Source: Vectrevirus T145P2
Reading direction: 5' to 3' (one strand)
DNA: 45,051 nucleotides
Sequence record: OZ035747.1
Numbering within the stretch: the first letter of the stretch is position 1; each line of letters starts with the position of its first letter. Below the pieces are notes generated by a model. The model did no database searches. It saw nothing but the letters and a program-made list of their open reading frames with translations, and had not been told where the DNA came from. Positions 1 through 27,851 of the stretch are shown in pieces. The position numbers and the translations under genes are program-made.

Positions 1-46
1 TAATAAGTTCAAGATTTGGAGGGAGAAGCGTGAGCGTACACAATAA
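1..46 (+). CDS. C-terminal fragment of class II holin (5-prime partial; in-frame continuation of the ORF at 44903..45051 if the sequence is circular)
   Basis: Window end leaves 2 nt (ta) that with nt 1 form TAT; reading on gives YNKFKIWREKRERTQ then TAA at 44-46, a basic tail typical of holins. Confidence 0.45.
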   Translation, partial: NKFKIWREKRERTQ

Positions 47-329
47 ACATGCAGCTACAGAGGACGAGGTTGGCATTCTGCATGGTGCTATTACCAAAAT
101 CTTCAATAAGAAAGCACAGGCAATACTGGACACTATAGAAGAAGACCCTGATGCAGCATTACATTTAGTGTCTGGTAAGGATATTGGTGCGATGTGTAAG
201 TGGGTTCTTGATAACGGCATTACCGCCACACCTGCTGCACAGCAGGAAGAGTCCAAGTTATCTAAGCGCCTCAAGGCTATCCGAGAGGCATCCAGTGGCA
301 AGATTATTCAGTTTACAAAAGAGGAGTGA
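30..329 (+). CDS. terminase small subunit (T7 gp18-like), GTG start
   Basis: GGAGG at 21-25 then GTG at 30; 99 aa; position directly upstream of large terminase; loose resemblance to T7 gp18 as I recall it. Confidence 0.5.
   Translation: MSVHNKHAATEDEVGILHGAITKIFNKKAQAILDTIEEDPDAALHLVSGKDIGAMCKWVLDNGITATPAAQQEESKLSKRLKAIREASSGKIIQFTKEE
122..144 (+). promoter_or_regulatory. phage RNAP promoter-like site inside the small terminase gene
   Basis: AATACTGGACACTATAGAAGAAG; matches the genome consensus except at the upstream AT-rich positions. Confidence 0.5.
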
Positions 330-330
330 T

Positions 331-774
331 ATGCATAGATGGTGTGAATCTCAAGGTTATACCATCTTACCTTCTGGTGTCATCCTTTCAAAGGGTGGCA
401 CCCCTCTCAAACCATTCAAGGCGGGTAGGGGTTATTTAGCAGTTAAAATTAAAAATAAAGAAGGTAAATGGCGTAATGTCTATGTTCATCAATTAGTGGC
501 TTATAAGTATTTACCTAAAACTAATAATGAAGTAAACCACAAAGACGGCGATAAGCACAACAATGATGTTAGCAACTTGGAGTGGGTAACAAGAAGCGAG
601 AATAACTATTTAAAATGCAATGGAAATGATAGGAGTGCCTTAAATAGCTATTTAGCAAGATTAAAAGATTGCTTCTTGCAAGGTAAGGGTGTAGCAGAAA
701 CCGCTAGACTTACTGGTAAAAGTGAACCAAGAGTTTCTTCTCTCTTTAAGGAGTGGCGAAATGGCAAAGGCTAG
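331..774 (+). CDS. HNH homing endonuclease with C-terminal HTH-like region
   Basis: ATG 331 after GAGGAG; motif EVNHKDGDKHNNDVSNLEWVTRSEN typical of HNH_3 nucleases; gene visibly AT-rich relative to neighbours; overlaps large terminase start by 14 nt. Confidence 0.8.
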   Translation: MHRWCESQGYTILPSGVILSKGGTPLKPFKAGRGYLAVKIKNKEGKWRNVYVHQLVAYKYLPKTNNEVNHKDGDKHNNDVSNLEWVTRSENNYLKCNGNDRSALNSYLARLKDCFLQGKGVAETARLTGKSEPRVSSLFKEWRNGKG

Positions 775-2659
775 AGAATCACAGGCAGAGGCATTAAAGC
801 GGTGGGAAAACCTTAAAGAACTACAAGACACTTTTAAATATACAGCGGAAGGTTTGCTTCTCTTTGCAGATACAGTTATTCATAACTTAATTGCAGGCAA
901 CCCTCATCTGATTCGTATGCAGGCGGATATCTTGAAGTTCCTATTTTACGGACACAAGTACCGCCTCATCGAAGCGCCTCGTGGTATCGCTAAGACAACA
1001 CTATCAGCAATCTATACGGTATTCCGTATTATTCATGAACCGCATAAGCGTATCATGGTTGTGTCCCAAAACGCCAAGCGAGCAGAGGAAATCGCAGGTT
1101 GGGTAGTTAAAATCTTCCGTGGCTTAGACTTTCTTGAGTTTATGCTGCCGGATATCTACGCTGGGGACCGTGCATCCGTTAAGGCGTTTGAGATTCATTA
1201 CACCCTACGTGGTAGTGATAAGTCTCCTTCTGTATCCTGTTACTCAATCGAAGCAGGTATGCAGGGTGCTCGTGCTGATATTATTCTAGCGGATGACGTA
1301 GAGTCGATGCAGAATGCTCGTACGGCAGCGGGCCGTGCCTTGCTTGAGGAACTGACTAAGGAGTTTGAATCTATCAACCAGTTTGGGGATATCATTTACC
1401 TTGGTACACCTCAGAACGTAAACTCTATCTACAACAACCTACCTGCTCGTGGTTACTCTGTTCGTATCTGGACTGCGCGTTACCCTTCAGTAGAGCAAGA
1501 GCAATGTTATGGCGACTTCCTTGCACCTATGATTGTGCAGGATATGAAGGACAACCCAGCACTGCGCTCAGGGTACGGGTTGGATGGTAATAGTGGTGCA
1601 CCTTGTGCCCCTGAAATGTATGATGATGAAGTCCTGATTGAGAAGGAAATCTCTCAGGGTGCTGCTAAGTTCCAGCTTCAGTTCATGCTTAACACTCGCA
1701 TGATGGATGCTGACAGATACCCATTACGCCTGAACAATCTAATCTTCACCTCGTTTGGTACAGAGGAAGTCCCTGTGATGCCTACGTGGAGTAATGATTC
1801 CATAAACATCATTGGTGATGCACCTAAGTATGGTAACAAGCCTACGGATTTCATGTACAGACCTGTAGCTCGCCCATACGAATGGGGTGCTGTCTCCCGC
1901 AAGATTATGTATATTGACCCTGCGGGTGGCGGTAAGAATGGGGATGAGACGGGTGTGGCTATCGTATTCCTGCACGGCACATTCATTTACGTGTATCAGT
2001 GCTTCGGTGTGCCGGGTGGATACCGCGAATCGTCCCTGAATCGCATTGTGCAGGCCGCAAAGCAGGCGGGTGTTAAAGAGGTATTCATTGAGAAGAACTT
2101 TGGTCATGGCGCGTTTGAGGCGGTAATTAAGCCGTACTTTGAACGAGAGTGGCCTGTAACGCTGGAAGAGGATTACGCCACCGGACAGAAAGAGTTGCGT
2201 ATCATTGAGACGCTGGAGCCGCTCATGGCAGCTCATAGGCTTATCTTCAATACAGAGATGGTGAAGTCAGACTTTGAGTCGGTACAGCACTACCCGCTTG
2301 AACTACGCATGTCCTACAGTCTTTTCAATCAAATGTCGAACATAACGATTGAGAAGAACAGCCTCCGGCACGATGACCGCCTAGACGCCCTGTATGGCGC
2401 TATACGGCAATTAACTTCTCAGATAGACTATGACGAGGTTACACGGATTAATCGCCTCAGAGCGCAGGAGATGCGCGATTACATCCATGCTATGAACACA
2501 CCTCATCTACGCAGGGCAATGCTATATGGAGATTACGGTACTGAGCGAAGAGTGACCAACACTTCCGTAGCGATGCAGCAGCGAGTTTACGGGCAGAACT
2601 ACCGAAATAAATCGGCAAGCAGAAATACACTTTCTGCAAGGATTTCAAGGACTTATTAA
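761..2659 (+). CDS. terminase large subunit (T7 gp19-like)
   Basis: AAGGAG then ATG 761; 632 aa; ATPase region RGIAKTTL...ILADDVESM and nuclease region DPAGGGKNGDETGVAIV. Confidence 0.93.
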   Translation: MAKARESQAEALKRWENLKELQDTFKYTAEGLLLFADTVIHNLIAGNPHLIRMQADILKFLFYGHKYRLIEAPRGIAKTTLSAIYTVFRIIHEPHKRIMVVSQNAKRAEEIAGWVVKIFRGLDFLEFMLPDIYAGDRASVKAFEIHYTLRGSDKSPSVSCYSIEAGMQGARADIILADDVESMQNARTAAGRALLEELTKEFESINQFGDIIYLGTPQNVNSIYNNLPARGYSVRIWTARYPSVEQEQCYGDFLAPMIVQDMKDNPALRSGYGLDGNSGAPCAPEMYDDEVLIEKEISQGAAKFQLQFMLNTRMMDADRYPLRLNNLIFTSFGTEEVPVMPTWSNDSINIIGDAPKYGNKPTDFMYRPVARPYEWGAVSRKIMYIDPAGGGKNGDETGVAIVFLHGTFIYVYQCFGVPGGYRESSLNRIVQAAKQAGVKEVFIEKNFGHGAFEAVIKPYFEREWPVTLEEDYATGQKELRIIETLEPLMAAHRLIFNTEMVKSDFESVQHYPLELRMSYSLFNQMSNITIEKNSLRHDDRLDALYGAIRQLTSQIDYDEVTRINRLRAQEMRDYIHAMNTPHLRRAMLYGDYGTERRVTNTSVAMQQRVYGQNYRNKSASRNTLSARISRTY

Positions 2660-2680
2660 TTACTGGACACTATAGAAGGA
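2658..2680 (+). promoter_or_regulatory. phage RNAP promoter
   Basis: ATTACTGGACACTATAGAAGG immediately after terminase stop; followed by AT-rich leader with TAGGT repeats. Confidence 0.8.
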
Positions 2681-2819
2681 AAGCCCAGATAATAAGATAA
2701 ATAATAGGTAATATATAGGTTAACCTAGGTTATATAGGTATACCTTAGTATGGGTGTACTCCTGTACACCCTATTCCTTACTACCTTACTATATTTACAT
2801 AATAGGAGAGAGAGAGACA

Positions 2820-3098
2820 ATGGCTAATGATTATAGTAGTCAACCATTAACAGGTAAGTCTAAGCGAAAGCAGGTACAACCTGTAAGTGAAGCACTAATG
2901 CTTCCGGTACTCAAAAAAGAGGAAGTTAGTAAGAAAAGCAATGTTATTAATGATGCCACCAAATCAGGTAAACAGAAAGGGGCCATGGTGTGCCTTGAAG
3001 TGGAAGGTGGTGTATTGAAGATTGCTATCGCGGTTGATGGCAAAGAAGATTCAGAGTGGAAGTTAGTAACAGTGGAACCAGCTGTTAACCCAGTTTAA
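2820..3098 (+). CDS. hypothetical protein, paralog A of a tandem pair
   Basis: ATG 2820; 92 aa; shares SGKQKGAMV.LE...IA.A...W motif with next gene. Confidence 0.6.
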   Translation: MANDYSSQPLTGKSKRKQVQPVSEALMLPVLKKEEVSKKSNVINDATKSGKQKGAMVCLEVEGGVLKIAIAVDGKEDSEWKLVTVEPAVNPV

Positions 3099-3116: not shown

Positions 3117-3410
3117 ATGGCTAAATATGGTACTACAGGTTCTGTTACTGGTCAGGCTTTTCGAGTAAAAGCAGTACAAACTATTGCAACGGCAATCCCG
3201 ATGCCTGTTGTTAAAGAAGCAGACCTTAAGAGTAAAGATCACCCTATCAACATCAAACATTTATCAGGTAAACAGAAAGGTGCAATGGTTGCTCTTGAGA
3301 AAAGTGACACAACCTTACATATTGCTGTTGCACGTGGTAGTGAACCAACAGACCCTTGGGATGTAACTGGCATGGAATCGCTCGCTGTCACTCCAGCAGG
3401 TGGAGAATAA
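3117..3410 (+). CDS. hypothetical protein, paralog B of a tandem pair
   Basis: AAGGAGG then ATG 3117; 97 aa; clear similarity to 2820..3098. Confidence 0.65.
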   Translation: MAKYGTTGSVTGQAFRVKAVQTIATAIPMPVVKEADLKSKDHPINIKHLSGKQKGAMVALEKSDTTLHIAVARGSEPTDPWDVTGMESLAVTPAGGE

Positions 3411-3879: not shown

Positions 3880-4012
3880 GTCTAAGAAAGTGGTAGGTGC
3901 ACTAGTTGCACTGGTAATTGCCCTTGTTTCTGTAGGTCTTGGCGTAGACCTTGGTGAAGGTACGGAAGGTTCCGTCACTGACGTGGTATGCCAAGTAATC
4001 ACCTGTGAATAA
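3863..4012 (+). CDS. small membrane protein in lysis cassette (49 aa; holin/antiholin or spanin component)
   Basis: GGGAG then ATG 3863; MKKLFKSKK then 19-residue hydrophobic segment VVGALVALVIALVSVGLGV. Confidence 0.45.
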   Translation: MKKLFKSKKVVGALVALVIALVSVGLGVDLGEGTEGSVTDVVCQVITCE

Positions 4013-4089
4013 GGTGCTTGAGGTGGTGGCAGGTCTTATCGGCCTGCTGCTTGCCGCTAAGAAGAAGAAGGAAGACAAGGAGGCACAAA

Positions 4090-4299
4090 GTGAAGCGAAT
4101 CATGTTAGTGACAATCCTGCTGATTGGTTCGCTGATCACTTCCGGGTGTCAGCAGGCGTTACCAGAGAAAGCAATGGTGAAACCTCTGAGGCCGACGCTG
4201 ACGGAAGTTTACGAGGTAGACGATAAGGTCTGCTTTAGTAAGCCTGACGCTACAAAATTAGGTTTGTATATTCTTTCGCTAGAACGCGGATATAATTAA
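4090..4299 (+). CDS. outer-membrane lipoprotein, probable o-spanin (Rz1-like)
   Basis: AAGGAGG at 4077-4083 then GTG 4090 (alternative ATG 4102); MKRIMLVTILLIGSLITSGC lipoprotein signal with Cys; short Pro-containing mature part with second Cys. Confidence 0.55.
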   Translation: MKRIMLVTILLIGSLITSGCQQALPEKAMVKPLRPTLTEVYEVDDKVCFSKPDATKLGLYILSLERGYN

Positions 4300-4328
4300 T
4301 ACATAGCTTTATGTATCAGTGTCTTACG

Positions 4329-4351
4329 ATTTACTGGACACTATAGAAGAG
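4329..4351 (+). promoter_or_regulatory. phage RNAP promoter upstream of tailspike genes
   Basis: ATTTACTGGACACTATAGAAGAGG, exact consensus. Confidence 0.85.
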
Positions 4352-4430
4352 GTAAGATAGCGCCGTTCTTTTGAACGGCCTATTACTAGCCAATCTTCAT
4401 AGGGAGGGTTGGGAAGTAATAGGAGGTTTA

Positions 4431-5870
4431 ATGGCTAATATTACCAAACCTGTCACAACTGGTATTATACATGAAGGAAGGCTGCTATCAGATTATCTAA
4501 AACAAGCATGGGATAACACCTTACACGCTGATAACTACTTTGTTAGTGTTAAAGACTTTGGCGCTAAGGGTGATGGCTCTGCTGATGATACTGCTGCATT
4601 CAAAGCTGCACTTGCTTCTGGTAAGAATGTATATATCCCTGTAGGTATTTATATAATTAGTGAGACTTTGTATTTTAAGAATCAGGTTATAAAAGGGGGC
4701 GGAATAGCACCTATTCCGAGTCTTGGTACAATCCTTGCAATCTCACACAGTGAGCCTGCATTGAAATATGATGTAAGTGCAGGTTACTCTATGGGTGGTT
4801 ATTTAGGTGGGTTCTTCATAGATTATGGAGAGAACAAACCAGATAACTATGCAGGCAGAAAAGGCATAGATCTAGGTGATGCCGACCAACAAGCATGGCC
4901 TTCTCAATTTATCATTGAGAACATCATTGTCCGTGGTGCATACTTTGGTTTGCATGATGAAACAGGAGCATTCCAATACTCAATGCGCAATGTGGTTGCT
5001 ATCAATTGCTGGGAGGGGTTCCGTAAGTTCACTGGAACTACAGTCCTTATGGATACATGCTATGCGCTTAATTGCTATCAAGCATATAGACTGGCTAATG
5101 TTTATAATATGACAATGAATAACTGCGCCATGGATGGATGTAATGATATCCAAGGTTTACAGGCATTTGATATTACAAACTGCAAAGGTCTTGTGATAAA
5201 TGGCATGTATAGTGAGAATTGTGAGATCCATCATAGCGGTAATGCTTCTATATTTATTCATGGAGATTCTACAGTAACAATCAACGGTTATACCTTACAC
5301 TCGCATAATGTCGTTGTTGATCCAGCATCTGGAAGTGAAGAAGCATACTTTCTTAGAGCGCACGACAGCTCTAGGGTCAATGTAGATGGAATCTTCTTCG
5401 GTGAGAACCTTAAATCTACTAGTATCTTCACCTACCCAATTATGGCCTCTGGTGAGTCTAGAATTAAGCTAGGAACTACAGCACTTAAGGCATGGGTCGG
5501 TGCTAAGGGTGGTGCATCTATGGCTGCTGTTGAAGATAGTCTCATTGAATATGACAATACCGTATTTAACCCATCACTTACTGTAGGTTGGTGCAGTAAT
5601 AATGGTGTTGTAGCTAAAGGGACACTAGTTGTAAACACAACATTAGAACCTAATGCAGATTTAAATGCAGGAACTATACAATTAGTTGGTGACTATAAAC
5701 CAAATAAAGGTGATGTTCTTACATATGGTTCTACTTTCGATGTTCAATCATGTGCTATTATTCTGAAGCCACAAGGTGATAATAGTTGTAATGTTTACAT
5801 TAAAAACCTAAGTGCAGGTAGTAGTGTTACACTTAACGGAATATTGCACGTACAGGCAATTCGTAGGTAA
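4431..5870 (+). CDS. tailspike 1: beta-helix polysaccharide depolymerase/lyase-like protein (possibly K5-type lyase)
   Basis: AGGAGG then ATG 4431; 479 aa; KDFGAKGDGSADDTAAFKAALASGKNVYIP start of pectate-lyase-like beta-helix; repeated N-x-C turns; lacks T7 gp17-type N-terminal domain. Confidence 0.75.
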   Translation: MANITKPVTTGIIHEGRLLSDYLKQAWDNTLHADNYFVSVKDFGAKGDGSADDTAAFKAALASGKNVYIPVGIYIISETLYFKNQVIKGGGIAPIPSLGTILAISHSEPALKYDVSAGYSMGGYLGGFFIDYGENKPDNYAGRKGIDLGDADQQAWPSQFIIENIIVRGAYFGLHDETGAFQYSMRNVVAINCWEGFRKFTGTTVLMDTCYALNCYQAYRLANVYNMTMNNCAMDGCNDIQGLQAFDITNCKGLVINGMYSENCEIHHSGNASIFIHGDSTVTINGYTLHSHNVVVDPASGSEEAYFLRAHDSSRVNVDGIFFGENLKSTSIFTYPIMASGESRIKLGTTALKAWVGAKGGASMAAVEDSLIEYDNTVFNPSLTVGWCSNNGVVAKGTLVVNTTLEPNADLNAGTIQLVGDYKPNKGDVLTYGSTFDVQSCAIILKPQGDNSCNVYIKNLSAGSSVTLNGILHVQAIRR

Positions 5871-9064: not shown

Positions 9065-9406
9065 CCTGATGGATGGCTTAGGTTAGACTTAGTGGGCTAC
9101 CTTAGTTAAAGCCTTAGTGCTTAGCTTAGTATCAACTTAGTAGTGTACCTTAGTAAGTCTTAGTGTCTTCTCTTAGTGATTGCATAGCTAAAGCTATAAG
9201 ATGCAATTAGGTCGCGGTCGGTAGACCGCTAATAAGAAGTAATAGTAATAAGATGCAGTAGGAGGAACACCAGAAACCTAGCCAACCTAGTCTATCCTAG
9301 CTCTGTATCTATTGCTTTCCTTAGTCTCACATGTTAGACAACCTAGGTTTATCTTAGTAGTTGTGACATGTATCACATAAATAATCTATCTTAGTGCGAT
9401 TTAGTG

Positions 9407-9435
9407 TTGACATAGGCAGTTAACAGGTATACATT
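9407..9435 (+). promoter_or_regulatory. candidate host sigma70 early promoter
   Basis: TTGACA - 17 nt - TACATT. Confidence 0.55.
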
Positions 9436-9658
9436 AGCAATCAGTCGGGAGCGACATTAAACACTCAGGGTGAATGATAGAGAGCGTCCTTAACTATCCG
9501 GCCTAGCTACTGAAGCCGTTAAACAATGTTAGATAGTGGAAGATGGCGCAAGCATAACCTACCACGATAAACCAAGGTTAGCGCAATGCTCTTTAACAAT
9601 TTGCTTAGTGTAACCTGTGTATGCCGTGGTTAATTACTTATTGAATGAGGGATTAACT

Positions 9659-9775
9659 ATGAATTACGAAGAAATGTATGAAGTCTATTTCGACTCATTA
9701 GATGAAGGAGAAGAAGCATTAACCTTCGCTGAGTTTATGGAGGCTTTATGGAGTTTCTATCATGACTCTAAATAA
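9659..9775 (+). CDS. small acidic early protein (38 aa)
   Basis: ATG 9659; first ORF after the host promoter; not in ORF track (<60 aa). Confidence 0.4.
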   Translation: MNYEEMYEVYFDSLDEGEEALTFAEFMEALWSFYHDSK

Positions 9776-9938
9776 CCGTGAACTATCCGTCCTCTTCACT
9801 CTGTTATGCTACATGATTCGTAACAACGAATTACTTACAGATGACGAGTTGGCACTATATCACCGCTTTCTTAACGAAGGTTGGACAGATACAGTTAACC
9901 ATAAACGTGACTTGATGAAGGAGTTAGGCAATGTATAA
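9762..9938 (+). CDS. small early protein (58 aa)
   Basis: ATG 9762; overlaps neighbours by a few nt as is common in T7-like early regions. Confidence 0.4.
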   Translation: MTLNNRELSVLFTLLCYMIRNNELLTDDELALYHRFLNEGWTDTVNHKRDLMKELGNV

Positions 9939-10140
9939 GCATGAGATTTACACGGCTTGCAATAAATCGGCTAAGGTTATCATTGAGATGTACAAGGCAG
10001 AATGTCAGGCGTACAACCTCAATGATGGTACCGAGATGTTTTATCTTCAGTTTGAAAGCAAGTTATCTCACAAACGAGTGATTAGCAGTCTTAATCAACA
10101 CTCTTTAGATTGGGAAGAAGTGAACAGCAATAAACTTTAA
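9931..10140 (+). CDS. early hypothetical protein (69 aa)
   Basis: ORF track; ATG 9931. Confidence 0.55.
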   Translation: MYKHEIYTACNKSAKVIIEMYKAECQAYNLNDGTEMFYLQFESKLSHKRVISSLNQHSLDWEEVNSNKL

Positions 10141-10148
10141 ATTAACTA

Positions 10149-10177
10149 TTGACAACCACGGCATACAAGGTTACATT
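10149..10177 (+). promoter_or_regulatory. candidate host sigma70 early promoter, twin of 9407
   Basis: TTGACA - 17 nt - TACATT, identical hexamers and AGGT before the -10 as at 9407. Confidence 0.55.
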
Positions 10178-10424
10178 AAGCATCAAGACGGCGACGTCTT
10201 TAAAAATCACGCTCTTTAACAATAGAGATTAGGCCGGGAGTATCGGTGTGAGGGATAAGGAGGCTTTCCCACAATTAAACTGGTGGCAAAAGGATTGCCC
10301 AGCTTTATAGCCCAGTTATGGATAGCAATAGCGTAAGGATGGCAGCACACCCGCGAGTCTAATCTCTAGCTCTTTAACAATCTGGCTAGTGCCTTGGTAG
10401 GCTAACTACTTACTAAGGTGAACT

Positions 10425-10637
10425 ATGAACTACTGCGACATCGCTCACGAATTACGCATGGAACGTGAGAAACAAGAAAGGCGGATTATCAAGAAGATGG
10501 CTGTACTGCTTGCACACTATAAGGCAGACAAACAGCCAACACATGATGAGTTCGTTGACTTCTGTAACATGTATCTTAATGTGAGTAAGGCCACTGGTTA
10601 CAGATGGCTTAAAGCACTGAATGATGGAGAATTGTAG
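10425..10637 (+). CDS. early hypothetical protein (70 aa), possible small DNA-binding protein
   Basis: AAGGTGAACT then ATG; C-terminal SKATGYRWLKAL resembles a helix-turn-helix. Confidence 0.55.
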   Translation: MNYCDIAHELRMEREKQERRIIKKMAVLLAHYKADKQPTHDEFVDFCNMYLNVSKATGYRWLKALNDGEL

Positions 10638-10736
10638 TAATAAGCCAGCTTAATAGCTGGCCTATCAAGGCACTAACCTAGCTCTTTAACAATCTGGTTT
10701 GTGTCTTGATAGGCTTACTAACAAAGGTGAACTATC

Positions 10737-10901
10737 ATGACTAACGCACAACGTAAACGCTATGATGCATTGCAAGAGAAACTTGCTGTTGCTTATGCCG
10801 CTTGGCAAGCTAACACAGACAAGAGCAAACACGATAAACTTTATAGTAAAGTGGTTGCAATTAATGCTAAAATAGATAAACTTGTGAATAGTATCTTATA
10901 A
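10737..10901 (+). CDS. small early protein (54 aa), predicted helical
   Basis: ATG 10737 after AAAGGTGA; followed by hairpin 10909-10924. Confidence 0.45.
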   Translation: MTNAQRKRYDALQEKLAVAYAAWQANTDKSKHDKLYSKVVAINAKIDKLVNSIL

Positions 10902-11050
10902 GATAGTTGCTGGCACTAGCCAGCCTATCAAGGCACAAGCCACGCTCTTTAACAATATGGGTAGTCGCTTCTTAGTCTGGATAGGTTAAACCTAGGGTAT
11001 TCTTTTGAGTGCCCTATAATGTAAACTAACTAACTAATGAGGATTAAATC

Positions 11051-15807: not shown

Positions 15808-17796
15808 ATGGCTATTATTCAGAATGTACCGTGTCCCGCCTGTCAAAAGAATGGACATGATATTACTGGCAACCATCTTATGATATTTGAGGATGGCGCT
15901 GGTTACTGTAACCGTGGTCACTTCCATGATAACGGCAAGCCTTATTACCATAAGCCAGAGGGTGGCATCGAGATAACCGAATTACCTATTACTGGCAATA
16001 TCAAATATACACCTTCTCAGTTTAAAGAGATGGAGAAGGAAGGGAAGATTAGCGACCCTAAGCTACGCGCCATCGCACTTGGTGGTATGCGTATGAAAGA
16101 CCGTTGGGAGGTTATGAATGAGCAAGAAAGGGCAGACCAAGAAGCAGAGTGGAAACTTGATGTTGAATGGTTCCTCACGCTTAAGCGTAAGAATCTTGTT
16201 TCCCGACACATTCGCGGCGACATTTGCGCATTGTATGATGTACGTGTCGGACACGATGAAGATGGTAGAGTCTCACGGCATTACTATCCACGCTTCGAGA
16301 AAGGTGAGCTAGTAGGCGCCAAGTGTCGCACATTACCTAAAGACTTTAAGTTTGGTCATTTAGGTAAACTCTTTGGTATGCAAGATCTTTTCGGTATGAA
16401 TACTTTGTCTCACGTGTTAGACAAGGGAAGACGAAAGGATTGCTTGCTTATTGTGGGCGGCGAACTGGATGCACTAGCAGCACAGCAGATGCTCCTTGAT
16501 TCTGCCAAGGGTACTAAGTGGGAAGGCCAGCCTTACCATGTATGGTCTGTCAATAAAGGTGAGTCTTGCCTTGAAGAGATAGTGCAGAACCGTGAGCATA
16601 TCGCCCAATTCAAGAAGATTATATGGGGTTTTGATGGAGATGAGGTGGGGCAGAAGCAGAATCAGCAAGCGGCTCGCCTGTTTCCTGGCAAATCCTATAT
16701 CCTTGAATACCCTTCTGGTTGCAAAGATGCTAACAAGGCATTGATGGCTGGCAAGGCTAAAGAGTTTGTTGATGCTTGGTTTAATGCCAAGTCATCTGAT
16801 GAAGTCTTTGGTAGCCAGATTAAATCTATCGCATCTCAAAGGGATAAGCTCAAGGCTGCACGTCCAGAGCAAGGGTTATCATGGCCTTGGCCTAAGCTGA
16901 ACAAGGTAACGCTAGGTATTCGTAAGAACCAGCTTATCATTGTAGGTGCAGGCTCTGGTGTAGGTAAGACTGAGTTCCTCCGCGAAGTGGTTAAACATCT
17001 TATTGAAGAACACGGTGAATCTGTAGGCATCATTTCTACAGAAGACCCGATGGTCAAGGTGTCCCGTGCTTTTATCGGCAAGTGGATTGATAAGCGTATT
17101 GAGTTACCGCCAACCAACGACCCGAAAGAAGACGGATACCGTGAGGTGTTCGACTACACCGAGGAAGAAGCTAACGCTGCCATTGATTATGTGGCTGATA
17201 CAGGAAAGCTATTTGTGGCTGACCTAGAAGGCGACTATTCTATGGAGAAGGTAGAGCAAACTTGCCTAGAGTTTGAGGCTATGGGCATTTCTAATATCAT
17301 CATTGATAACTTAACGGGGATTAAATTAGATGAGCGTGCTTTTGGTGGGAAGGTTGGTGCACTTGATGAATGCGTCAAACGAATTGGTACTATCAAAGAC
17401 CGACATGCGGTTACGATTTTCCTTGTCTCTCACCTTACACGTCCTCCGGCAAACCGTACCCAACACGAAGAAGGTGGCGAAGTTATCCTTTCTGACTTCC
17501 GAGGCTCAGGCGCTATCGGATTCTGGGCATCTTACGCCTTGGGGATTGAGCGTAATACAAGAGCTGAAACGCTTGATGAAAGGACTACCACGTACATCTC
17601 TTGTGTCAAAGACCGCGACCAAGGTATCTACACAGGAACCAAAGTCATGCTCAAGGGTGACATTCAGACCGGGCGTTTGAGAGAACCACAAGCTAGAACA
17701 AGGTCGTTTGATACAGGCGAAGCAAGGCAACAAGAAGTACCGGATTTACCGGACACTATAGAAGAGACAACCTTTGACGATGAACAGGAGTTTTAA
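15808..17796 (+). CDS. DNA primase/helicase (T7 gp4-like)
   Basis: 662 aa; N-terminal Cys4 zinc motif CPACQKNGHD...YCNRGH; Walker A GAGSGVGKTEF; acidic C-terminus ending DDEQEF. Confidence 0.95.
   Translation: MAIIQNVPCPACQKNGHDITGNHLMIFEDGAGYCNRGHFHDNGKPYYHKPEGGIEITELPITGNIKYTPSQFKEMEKEGKISDPKLRAIALGGMRMKDRWEVMNEQERADQEAEWKLDVEWFLTLKRKNLVSRHIRGDICALYDVRVGHDEDGRVSRHYYPRFEKGELVGAKCRTLPKDFKFGHLGKLFGMQDLFGMNTLSHVLDKGRRKDCLLIVGGELDALAAQQMLLDSAKGTKWEGQPYHVWSVNKGESCLEEIVQNREHIAQFKKIIWGFDGDEVGQKQNQQAARLFPGKSYILEYPSGCKDANKALMAGKAKEFVDAWFNAKSSDEVFGSQIKSIASQRDKLKAARPEQGLSWPWPKLNKVTLGIRKNQLIIVGAGSGVGKTEFLREVVKHLIEEHGESVGIISTEDPMVKVSRAFIGKWIDKRIELPPTNDPKEDGYREVFDYTEEEANAAIDYVADTGKLFVADLEGDYSMEKVEQTCLEFEAMGISNIIIDNLTGIKLDERAFGGKVGALDECVKRIGTIKDRHAVTIFLVSHLTRPPANRTQHEEGGEVILSDFRGSGAIGFWASYALGIERNTRAETLDERTTTYISCVKDRDQGIYTGTKVMLKGDIQTGRLREPQARTRSFDTGEARQQEVPDLPDTIEETTFDDEQEF
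17744..17766 (+). promoter_or_regulatory. phage RNAP promoter inside 3-prime end of the primase-helicase gene
   Basis: ATTTACCGGACACTATAGAAGAG. Confidence 0.7.
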
Positions 17797-17957
17797 TGGA
17801 AATTATTAAACCAGTATTGAATATCGGTATTGAGATCCTATTCATGCTTGTGATCGCAGATTATGCTGCACGATATGGATTCAAGAAAGCTGTGAAACTT
17901 ATCGTTGCATCTGGTTTTATTATGTCAATGTTCTTTATTGTAACACGCCTTATCTAG
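17796..17957 (+). CDS. small membrane protein (53 aa, two hydrophobic segments)
   Basis: AGGAG then ATG 17796 overlapping helicase stop (TAATG). Confidence 0.5.
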   Translation: MEIIKPVLNIGIEILFMLVIADYAARYGFKKAVKLIVASGFIMSMFFIVTRLI

Positions 17958-24682: not shown

Positions 24683-24973
24683 ATGCCGACTATTGAAGAT
24701 CGTTTCCAGATTCACGCATCTTACTCGCCTATGCTTAGAGGTCATCTTATTACCATTAGATTAGATTATGAGTTGTATCTTGTAGATTATTTATATACAG
24801 ACTATGACTGCCAACGTAACATGGTGGGACCGATGAGGTGGGCGGCTGAGTGGGTGCGCGAGCACGTGCTGAAGGAGTGGCCTACATGCGACCAAACTTC
24901 GACTTCGGAGCTACAGTATCGGAAGACAATAATCTCATCCTGTGGCCGACTGAAGGTAATCGAATCGCTTTAA
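24683..24973 (+). CDS. hypothetical protein (96 aa) overlapping the exonuclease gene start
   Basis: GGAGA then ATG 24683; 3-prime 88 nt overlap exonuclease in another frame. Confidence 0.4.
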   Translation: MPTIEDRFQIHASYSPMLRGHLITIRLDYELYLVDYLYTDYDCQRNMVGPMRWAAEWVREHVLKEWPTCDQTSTSELQYRKTIISSCGRLKVIESL

Positions 24974-27329: not shown

Positions 27330-27380
27330 AGGGTAGGTATTAGCTTACCCTTGATTGTATAGTGAATGGAGGAATTAATT

Positions 27381-27851
27381 ATGTCAAAGATTTATATTGG
27401 CGAATACGTCGTACGCCGTGCAGCTTACCGAGATGCCATCTGGAATAAACTGTGTGAAAGCCTAGACAAGAAACCAGATGGGGTATTCAAAGTATCCCGT
27501 GCAGAACCTAATTATAACTCTATTATGTTAGAAGGTGTTGAGAAGCGCGAATGGTATGCACCTTACTTCAAGGTTGTTGACTCATTGCAAGATGAAGATC
27601 CTAGCACGTTGGACAACAATATGGTTACTAAGCCTAAGCACTATGAGTTCTTCGATGGGGTAGAGGCAATCACTATCATTGCTCGTAGTATGACCGAGAA
27701 GCAATTTGCTGGATATTGCATGGGTAACGCTTTGAAGTATCGTCTGCGTGCAGGTAAGAAATTCAATACTGAAGAAGACCTGAAGAAAGCAGACTACTAT
27801 AAAGAGTTATTCCAGAAACATCGTCACGAATGTATTGATGAGGATATTTGA
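27381..27851 (+). CDS. DUF3310-like protein (family of T7 gp1.7 nucleotide kinase)
   Basis: AGGAGG then ATG 27381; KPKHYEFFDGVEAITII...QFAGYCMGNALKYRLRAGKK motif. Confidence 0.55.
   Translation: MSKIYIGEYVVRRAAYRDAIWNKLCESLDKKPDGVFKVSRAEPNYNSIMLEGVEKREWYAPYFKVVDSLQDEDPSTLDNNMVTKPKHYEFFDGVEAITIIARSMTEKQFAGYCMGNALKYRLRAGKKFNTEEDLKKADYYKELFQKHRHECIDEDI

Follow-up and report, generated by a model that had tools for sequence, protein, structure and literature searches.

The region at about positions 310-843 of the window, i.e., of the complete 45,051-nt stretch of DNA analysed here, is with high probability a free-standing I-HmuI-like homing-endonuclease cassette, which combines an HNH endonuclease gene with a rewritten version of the first ~83 nt of the large terminase gene (terL). 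The HNH gene is inserted exactly at the junction between the stop codon of the small terminase gene (terS) and the start codon of terL. Going by the sequence comparisons, the cassette probably targets the terL 5' end of HNH-less phages, and the rewritten terL start probably shields the carrier from its own enzyme.

The initial annotation had offered two readings of the HNH gene, i.e., a homing endonuclease that invaded the terminase operon or an HNH partner that assists terminase. The former is strongly supported by a count of 17 carriers and 58 non-carriers with precise borders, and it gains a feature that the annotation did not contain, namely the rewritten first 83 nt of terL, which always go along with the HNH gene. 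The latter is not supported, since most relatives (K1-5 included) do without the gene and since the protein is of the I-HmuI/HNH_3 type.

Results

Source phage and packaging genes

The first 3 kb of the window match 109 phage records, nearly all of them Vectrevirus, and the top matches among the GenBank phage records show 98.7% identity. By sequence, we assign the source phage to Vectrevirus, i.e., to the K1-5/SP6-like podophages (K1-5-like Autographiviridae, subfamily Molineuxvirinae). The 45-kb window represents such a genome in circularly permuted form; apart from a few swapped modules, it is collinear with K1-5. In a whole-genome blastn comparison, positions 4451-5864 and 9358-10909 have no K1-5 counterpart, and smaller gaps are found at 17792-17955, 24697-24869 and 27339-27608. 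The first of the two long segments takes the place of most of the K5-lyase tailspike gene (gp46), i.e., the receptor-binding module is swapped, and the second falls in the early region.

On the plus strand, terS (30-329) encodes the 99-aa small terminase subunit (Pfam DNA_Packaging_2, E 3.6e-16; phrog_891, E 9.5e-26), and its homologue is labelled terminase small subunit in the VEc3, AAPEc6 and K1-5 records. It is the left neighbour of the HNH gene, and only its last ~20 nt count as part of the mobile element. The right neighbour is terL (761-2659, plus strand), which encodes the 632-aa large subunit (Pfam Terminase-T7_RNaseH-like, E 1.5e-35; phrog_17672, E 2e-238) and is intact and without an intron. 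We reject an intron-encoded endonuclease: the Rfam search of positions 1-3000 of the window gave no match, hence no intron was found there, and the HNH ORF is located between two genes.

Downstream of terL we find two small adjacent ORFs (2820-3098 and 3117-3410) that have the motif ...SGKQKGAMV...L.IA.A... in common and resemble a tandem duplication; the record of phage LL11 calls this pair 'most likely a duplication region'. Their RefSeq name, acetyl-CoA acetyltransferase, seems doubtful.

The HNH gene and its junctions

The HNH gene (331-774, plus strand) is recognised by its Pfam HNH_3 and I-HmuI matches and by its AlphaFold2 model. Its reading frame is open throughout, from the ATG at 331 to the TAG at 772-774, and encodes 147 aa. 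It has a GC content of 38.1%, compared to 45.3% for terS, 47.6% for terL and 44.9% for the whole window, and only 2.6% of all 444-nt windows show a GC content as low. The terL ATG at 761 precedes the end of the HNH stop codon at 774, such that both genes overlap by 14 nt. That is, the intact ORF with its HNH motif (HNH_3, E 2.6e-11), its higher AT content relative to both neighbours and its 14-nt overlap with the terL start, all reported in the initial annotation, are borne out. Several GenBank records already name the gene "HNH homing endonuclease" or HNH endonuclease; our literature search on VEc3, AAPEc6 and Vectrevirus combined with homing endonuclease found no study of it. A tblastn search of the HNH protein against the window returned the gene itself only, i.e., no further HNH copy.

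At the left junction (310-330, plus strand), the terS 3' end is recoded, with 19% divergence between HNH-carrying and HNH-less genomes. This short stretch holds the GAGGAG Shine-Dalgarno sequence of the HNH gene (321-326), the terS stop codon TGA (327-329) and one spacer base. It is altered in most HNH-carrying genomes; phage PhiNW-E1 retains the sequence of the HNH-less type, which tells us that the left flank can recombine away. At the right end, the Shine-Dalgarno sequence AAGGAG of terL (748-753, plus strand), as read from the sequence, is provided by the 3' end of the HNH gene and ends 7 nt ahead of the ATG at 761.

A promoter inside terS

A match to phage-RNA-polymerase promoters of the SP6/K1-5 type is located inside terS (122-144, plus strand), and its core is repeated in the window. 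Allowing for at most two mismatches, we count 11 plus-strand copies of the core GGACACTATAGAAG, where 0.24 are expected by chance. The copy inside terS is exact (128-141), so that the promoter previously reported at 122-144 holds as a sequence match. Its upstream part reads CAATACT, compared to ATTTACT in the other copies. By analogy to the SP6 promoter, transcription is predicted to start at G138 (+1), and the transcript would cover the HNH gene as well as terL.

Of the 19 Vectrevirus loci that we compared, both with and without the HNH gene, 18 share an identical 29-nt promoter sequence, and the remaining one (Mt1B1_P10) differs solely downstream of the core. From the Klebsiella-lineage contigs (see below), the promoter is absent. 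Since it is identical in Vectrevirus relatives with or without HNH, we reject the promoter as a part of the mobile element; it rather is a resident late promoter of the phage and unrelated to the insertion.

A second exact copy begins at the terL stop codon (region 2658-2820, core at 2665-2678). Downstream of this copy, the sequence is very rich in AT (GC ~34%); it repeats TATAGGT/TAGGTTA motifs and contains a hairpin at 2752-2771 that resembles a terminator.

Family and fold of the HNH protein

The Pfam family HNH_3 covers residues 50-92 (E 2.6e-11, 43.4 bits for a cut-off of 24.8), and PHROG HNH families match with E-values down to 1e-29. Among Pfam matches with E<=0.1, there is beside HNH_3 only a weak one to HTH_23; PF01844 is not matched. 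No NUMOD motif is detected by Pfam, and an NCBIfam search with the protein gave no match.

In an alignment of 53 homologues, every sequence has H70 (codon at nt 538-540), D72, N77 and N82, and at least 90% have N69, N78 and N91. The AlphaFold2 model built from these homologues has a mean pLDDT of 93.4. It shows a modular fold, i.e., an N-terminal beta-strand region (residues ~10-51), the beta-beta-alpha-metal core of HNH_3 with H70, N82 and N91 (residues 50-92) and a helical, HTH-like tail (residues 101-143).

The I-HmuI likeness is observed in sequence as well as in structure. A sequence search of the PDB has I-HmuI (1u3e) as its sole significant match (E 5.4e-6), and the respective alignment pairs the DH...N...N core of I-HmuI with NH70...N82...N91 of the HNH protein. 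Likewise, 1u3e is the sole significant match (E<=0.001) of the Foldseek search against the PDB (E 8.3e-7, TM 0.56, 30% identity over 115 columns). N69 occupies the position of the I-HmuI metal ligand D74. As Asn is found there in at least 90% of the 53 homologues, it looks like a family trait rather than decay.

For the C-terminal tail by itself, support is weak. The HTH-like tail reported previously is present in the model as three helices (101-116, 121-128 and 132-143), but its matches to HTH families are weak. Pfam HTH_23 is found with E 0.045 (below threshold), Foldseek yields partial matches to HTH domains with probabilities of 0.6-0.87 and E > 0.5, and for a 59%-identical homologue, the matches to three HTH families (E about 1e-3) likewise stay below threshold. 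Based on the model, a C-terminal HTH is plausible.

Presence and absence among relatives

A comparison of presence and absence at this exact site had been suggested along with the initial annotation. A 116-nt query across the HNH/terL junction identified 75 related GenBank records. The HNH gene is carried by 17 of them and is missing from the other 58, including K1-5. A DNA search with the HNH gene returned 17 records only, all Vectrevirus-like, with identities of 91-100%. Records without HNH, such as K1-5, LL11 and many more, align to just 83-85% of the 3-kb query, in two pieces. In K1-5, LL11 and others, the terS stop codon TGA overlaps the terL ATG (GATTGATGG) with nothing in between, while the carriers have the 444-nt ORF exactly at this junction, with identical borders.

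All 147 residues of the HNH protein are aligned by tblastn in each of the 17 carrier records, and the ORF is intact in all ten HNH-carrying GenBank loci that we examined. A Logan contig (ERR4564195) that is 98.7% identical to the window also carries the gene, with single-A deletions in two A-runs (equivalent to window positions 317 and 451). As a result, terS runs into the beginning of the HNH ORF, and an HNH fragment of 92 aa remains. This reflects either decay of the endonuclease gene or an assembly error.

The rewritten start of terL

We aligned 10 carriers and 9 non-carriers in order to locate the differences between both groups. From 24 fixed differences, 23 are found at positions 766-841, i.e., within nt 6-81 of terL. 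Between-group divergence is 33.6% for 761-843, compared to 3.2% for terS, 2.1% for 844-1000 and 3.8% further on. The first 28 codons of terL (761-843, plus strand) thus form a rewritten block that is inherited together with the HNH gene in the same split of 17 vs. 58 records. Its right edge at 843/844 is sharp and the same in every carrier aligned. With regard to base composition, the block of the carriers (39.8% GC) is similar to the HNH gene, while the HNH-less allele shows 50.6%; gene and block are foreign in composition. On protein level, it introduces the changes A13K, M17N, Q19K, Q23D and P26K into TerL.

The linkage of gene and block is complete. The junction query is at least 95.7% identical to 17 records and 70-74% identical to the other 58, with no intermediates. 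That is, no phage record among these 75 has the rewritten block without the HNH gene, and no recombinant parts the two on the right side, in contrast to the left flank, which does recombine. We propose that 761-843 is an immunity allele or a co-conversion tract, and that the homologous terL 5' stretch of HNH-less phages would be the target region. Free-standing endonucleases can cut some distance from their own gene. The block could also be a hitch-hiking remnant of a donor terL and not the counterpart of the target itself.

Spread across diverged backgrounds

The cassette (331-843) shows no difference in 513 positions between the window and Mt1B1_P10, PDP21P6 or T147P9, while the terL bodies of these three phages are 5-8% different from that of the window (54 to 85 of 1057 positions). 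Mt1B1_P10 differs at 85/1057 positions of the terL body and, in addition, at 15/270 of terS. The terL body closest to that of the window is found in an HNH-less phage, KMB14 (3/1057). The region is clearly mosaic, i.e., terS and terL bodies reassort among Vectrevirus genomes. Identical cassettes in diverged terL backgrounds are the signature expected from recent horizontal movement rather than from vertical descent.

No donor of the cassette was found; the nearest proteins, from Klebsiella-lineage contigs, are 59% identical. The next nearest reach at most ~45% over comparable lengths and come from Klebsiella podophages, T5-like phages and metagenomes. A scan of IMG/VR adds AAPEc6 itself and three distant homologues, but nothing else. 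Proteus phage PM 93 (KM819696.1), also SP6-like, encodes an HNH_3 homologue at 4001-4414 (47% identity over 62% of the query). This homologue is encoded elsewhere in the genome, directly behind the RNA polymerase gene, such that this HNH family uses several insertion sites in SP6-like phages.

An independent case in a Klebsiella lineage

The full-length homologue with 59% identity obtained from the database search (P0002) is found in two Logan contigs (L019 and L020), where its gene separates terS from terL. These contigs belong to a lineage of SP6-like Klebsiella phages (K1-ULIP33, VR702, cp4 and others), whose GenBank members all are without HNH. Here, the 3' end of the HNH gene (TTTAAGAGGTGGAGAAATGG) provides the Shine-Dalgarno sequence of terL in the same way as in the window.

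The rewriting of terL recurs as well. In these carriers, nt 1-100 of terL are 68-76% identical to the relatives, compared to 94-100% in the next 650 nt; that is, about the first 93 nt are rewritten, while terS is unchanged up to its stop codon. The resulting TerL changes are M17A, S26P and Q30P. When comparing alleles between both lineages, the HNH-less ones are the most alike pair (78%, and 84% in nt 1-45), whereas the HNH-carrying ones are only 58% alike, i.e., less than each is to its own empty allele. Common ancestry of the two rewritten blocks is therefore not supported, and the block was rewritten independently in each lineage.

Nine terL positions are changed in both lineages (nt 12, 24, 27, 34, 36, 39, 50, 66 and 69). 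Furthermore, Met17, an amino acid with a single codon, is replaced in both, by Asn in Vectrevirus and by Ala in the Klebsiella lineage. We regard the positions changed twice as the best pointer at hand to the recognition site.

Some HNH-carrying relatives have an additional insertion in terL. In PhiNW-E1 (PQ476011.1) and L020, the gene is split after ...YIDPAG by ~0.7 kb that hold a group I intron (Rfam RF00028; 61 and 65 bits for a threshold of 50) at 1826-2074 and 2664-2873, respectively. The insertion also contains a 177-aa ORF (2119-2652 in PhiNW-E1, 2918-3451 in L020) with weak GIY-YIG and NUMOD-like (I-HmuI) matches, both below threshold. The terL gene of SP6-like phages is thus invaded by at least two different mobile elements.

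Discussion

Relation to known systems

I-HmuI from Bacillus phage SPO1 (PDB 1U3E) has the same HNH_3 core, where H75, N87 and N96 correspond to H70, N82 and N91 of the protein studied here. Both have an N-terminal beta region in front of the core and a helical, HTH-like tail behind it. In contrast, I-HmuI is encoded inside a group I intron and has 174 aa and Asp74 as metal ligand, while the Vectrevirus gene is free-standing between two ORFs and encodes 147 aa with an Asn at the respective position. Characterised I-HmuI-type enzymes, e.g., I-PfoP3I, are strand-specific nickases. Nicking, not double-strand cutting, would thus be the default expectation for the Vectrevirus enzyme.

In terms of genomic organisation, comparable cases are free-standing homing endonucleases of phages such as T4 MobE and Seg, as well as I-HmuI-like HNH genes from lactococcal Skunavirus. 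They are likewise intergenic and next to an essential gene, some close relatives have them and others do not, the DNA at their flanks moves along with them (co-conversion tract), and differences in the target region of the carrier are the expected source of immunity (PMC2790892, PMC12724721). The Vectrevirus case differs in its host group (SP6/K1-5-like podophages), in its proposed target (the very start of terL) and in its rewritten tract, which is unusually short and sharp (83 nt) and comes with amino-acid changes. More generally, homing endonuclease genes are concentrated near terminase and other essential genes (Barth et al., PMC10448857). A mobile HNH gene next to an essential gene of a T7-supergroup phage is also known from the 'collaborative homing' pair of HNH gene and intron in T3-like phages (cited in PMC10448857). 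The window, however, has no intron, and that of the relatives is located ~1.2 kb downstream and has its own ORF, such that nothing points to a collaborative arrangement.

Proposed mechanism

We expect the HNH gene to be transcribed together with terS and terL late in infection, and its translation to be coupled to theirs. Transcription would start from upstream late promoters, the resident one in terS among them. On co-infection with an HNH-less relative, the enzyme would bind the conserved 5' end of that phage's terL, by means of its N-terminal beta region and the C-terminal HTH, and would then nick or cut it there. Repair by recombination with the carrier genome would then transfer the HNH gene, along with the rewritten terL segment next to it, to the cut genome. 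In the carrier itself, roughly every third base of the terL start is different, with an amino-acid change at the single-codon Met17, such that this sequence would not be recognised. Within this scheme, we infer the nuclease activity, the position of the target and the choice between nicking and double-strand cutting from the sequence. Barth et al. (PMC10448857) caution that active homing cannot be proven by sequence data alone, which applies to the Vectrevirus cassette, too.

Alternative explanations

The strongest competitor is an inactive passenger, which we nevertheless consider unlikely. Here, a single illegitimate recombination event would have brought in the gene along with part of a foreign terL; the gene would now spread or persist among Vectrevirus only by ordinary homologous recombination, without any endonuclease activity. 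The mosaic nature of the region, with its reassorting terS and terL bodies, is consistent with that, as are the Asn in place of the I-HmuI metal ligand Asp and the general point that sequence cannot show activity. On the other hand, the ORF is maintained throughout (intact in 10/10 loci, full length in 17/17 records) with conserved catalytic positions, and a 100% identical cassette across backgrounds that are up to 8% diverged needs recent and fast spread. The lack of recombinants that separate HNH and block on the right side, though the left flank recombines, is expected for an active enzyme, since an HNH gene next to a cleavable site would self-destruct. Finally, a second lineage developed this pattern on its own, with a differently rewritten block.

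Less credible still is a role in packaging, where the HNH protein would assist terminase in cutting concatemers, as do HK97 gp74 or the GVE2-like HNH proteins of cos-type siphophages, and where A13K, M17N, Q19K, Q23D and P26K would form a co-adapted TerL interface. The location inside the packaging operon with translational coupling to terS and terL suits this reading, the linked block alters five amino acids and not silent sites alone, and an HNH gene beside terminase can in principle have a homing and a packaging role at once (PMC10448857). HK97 gp74 and the GVE2-like 'HrdP' of Skunavirus are indeed small HNH proteins in or by the terminase genes as well; yet each member of the respective phage groups has them, always at one site, and they work together with terminase in cos phages, while the HNH_3-type gene studied here belongs to a T7-supergroup phage. 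A packaging-type HNH is universal at its fixed site, i.e., the GVE2-like type is found in 89/89 Skunavirus genomes, whereas I-HmuI-like HNH genes of Skunavirus vary in number and position, cause marker exclusion and are assigned to the homing class (Yu et al., PMC12724721). By comparison, the Vectrevirus gene is missing from 58/75 related records, the type phage K1-5 among them, which have terS joined directly to terL, i.e., packaging does not need it. The matches obtained are to HNH_3/I-HmuI only, with no packaging-type HNH among the Foldseek matches listed and none to PF01844, and the Klebsiella carriers alter other TerL residues (M17A, S26P, Q30P), which argues against a specific interface. 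In addition, T7/SP6-like phages package via terminal repeats rather than cos sites. Given that most relatives lack the gene and that family and fold are of I-HmuI type, we reject the role as terminase cofactor.

We grant similarly little weight to a nuclease for competition or defence, which would damage co-infecting relatives (by marker exclusion or interference with terL) and for which gene conversion would be a by-product. The proposed target in an essential gene of competitors would suit such a function, and Skunavirus I-HmuI-like HNH genes give marker exclusion when expressed (PMC12724721). Its predicted sequence signatures are the same as for homing, such that the data cannot separate both, but a gene found in just 17 of 75 sampled records gives no hint of a strong general advantage.

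Building on the homing cassette as the preferred reading, we consider a wider one tenable, though somewhat short of probable. According to this, the conserved ~90-nt start of terL is the target of an HNH family in at least two SP6-like genera, each lineage of carriers escaped on its own by rewriting this stretch, with a forced amino-acid change at the single-codon Met17 in both escapes, and the mobile unit, consisting of the nuclease and a recoded start of an essential gene, would be a weapon directed at relatives in the same cell. Functional coupling of the altered TerL N-terminus to the HNH protein would extend this reading further and is less likely.

Implications

It is well documented that free-standing HNH homing endonucleases reside beside essential genes of phages. 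The cassette reported here is an uncharacterised member of this well-known type of mobile element and an unusually clean example of it. The split of 17 vs. 58 among near-identical phages, together with the replicate in the Klebsiella lineage, provides a natural experiment. The short and sharp block narrows the likely recognition site to ~80 nt (761-843 in the carriers, nt 1-83 of terL in K1-5). For this lineage of the T7 supergroup, the HNH gene is not needed for packaging.

If the wider reading is true, the cassette would disable or convert the terminase gene of rivals late in infection and would shape which Vectrevirus phages coexist or recombine. This would also bear on phage-therapy cocktails, which often contain K1-5-like phages. 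The cassette as such already suggests that mixing HNH-carrying and HNH-less Vectrevirus in therapeutic cocktails could cause gene conversion or exclusion.
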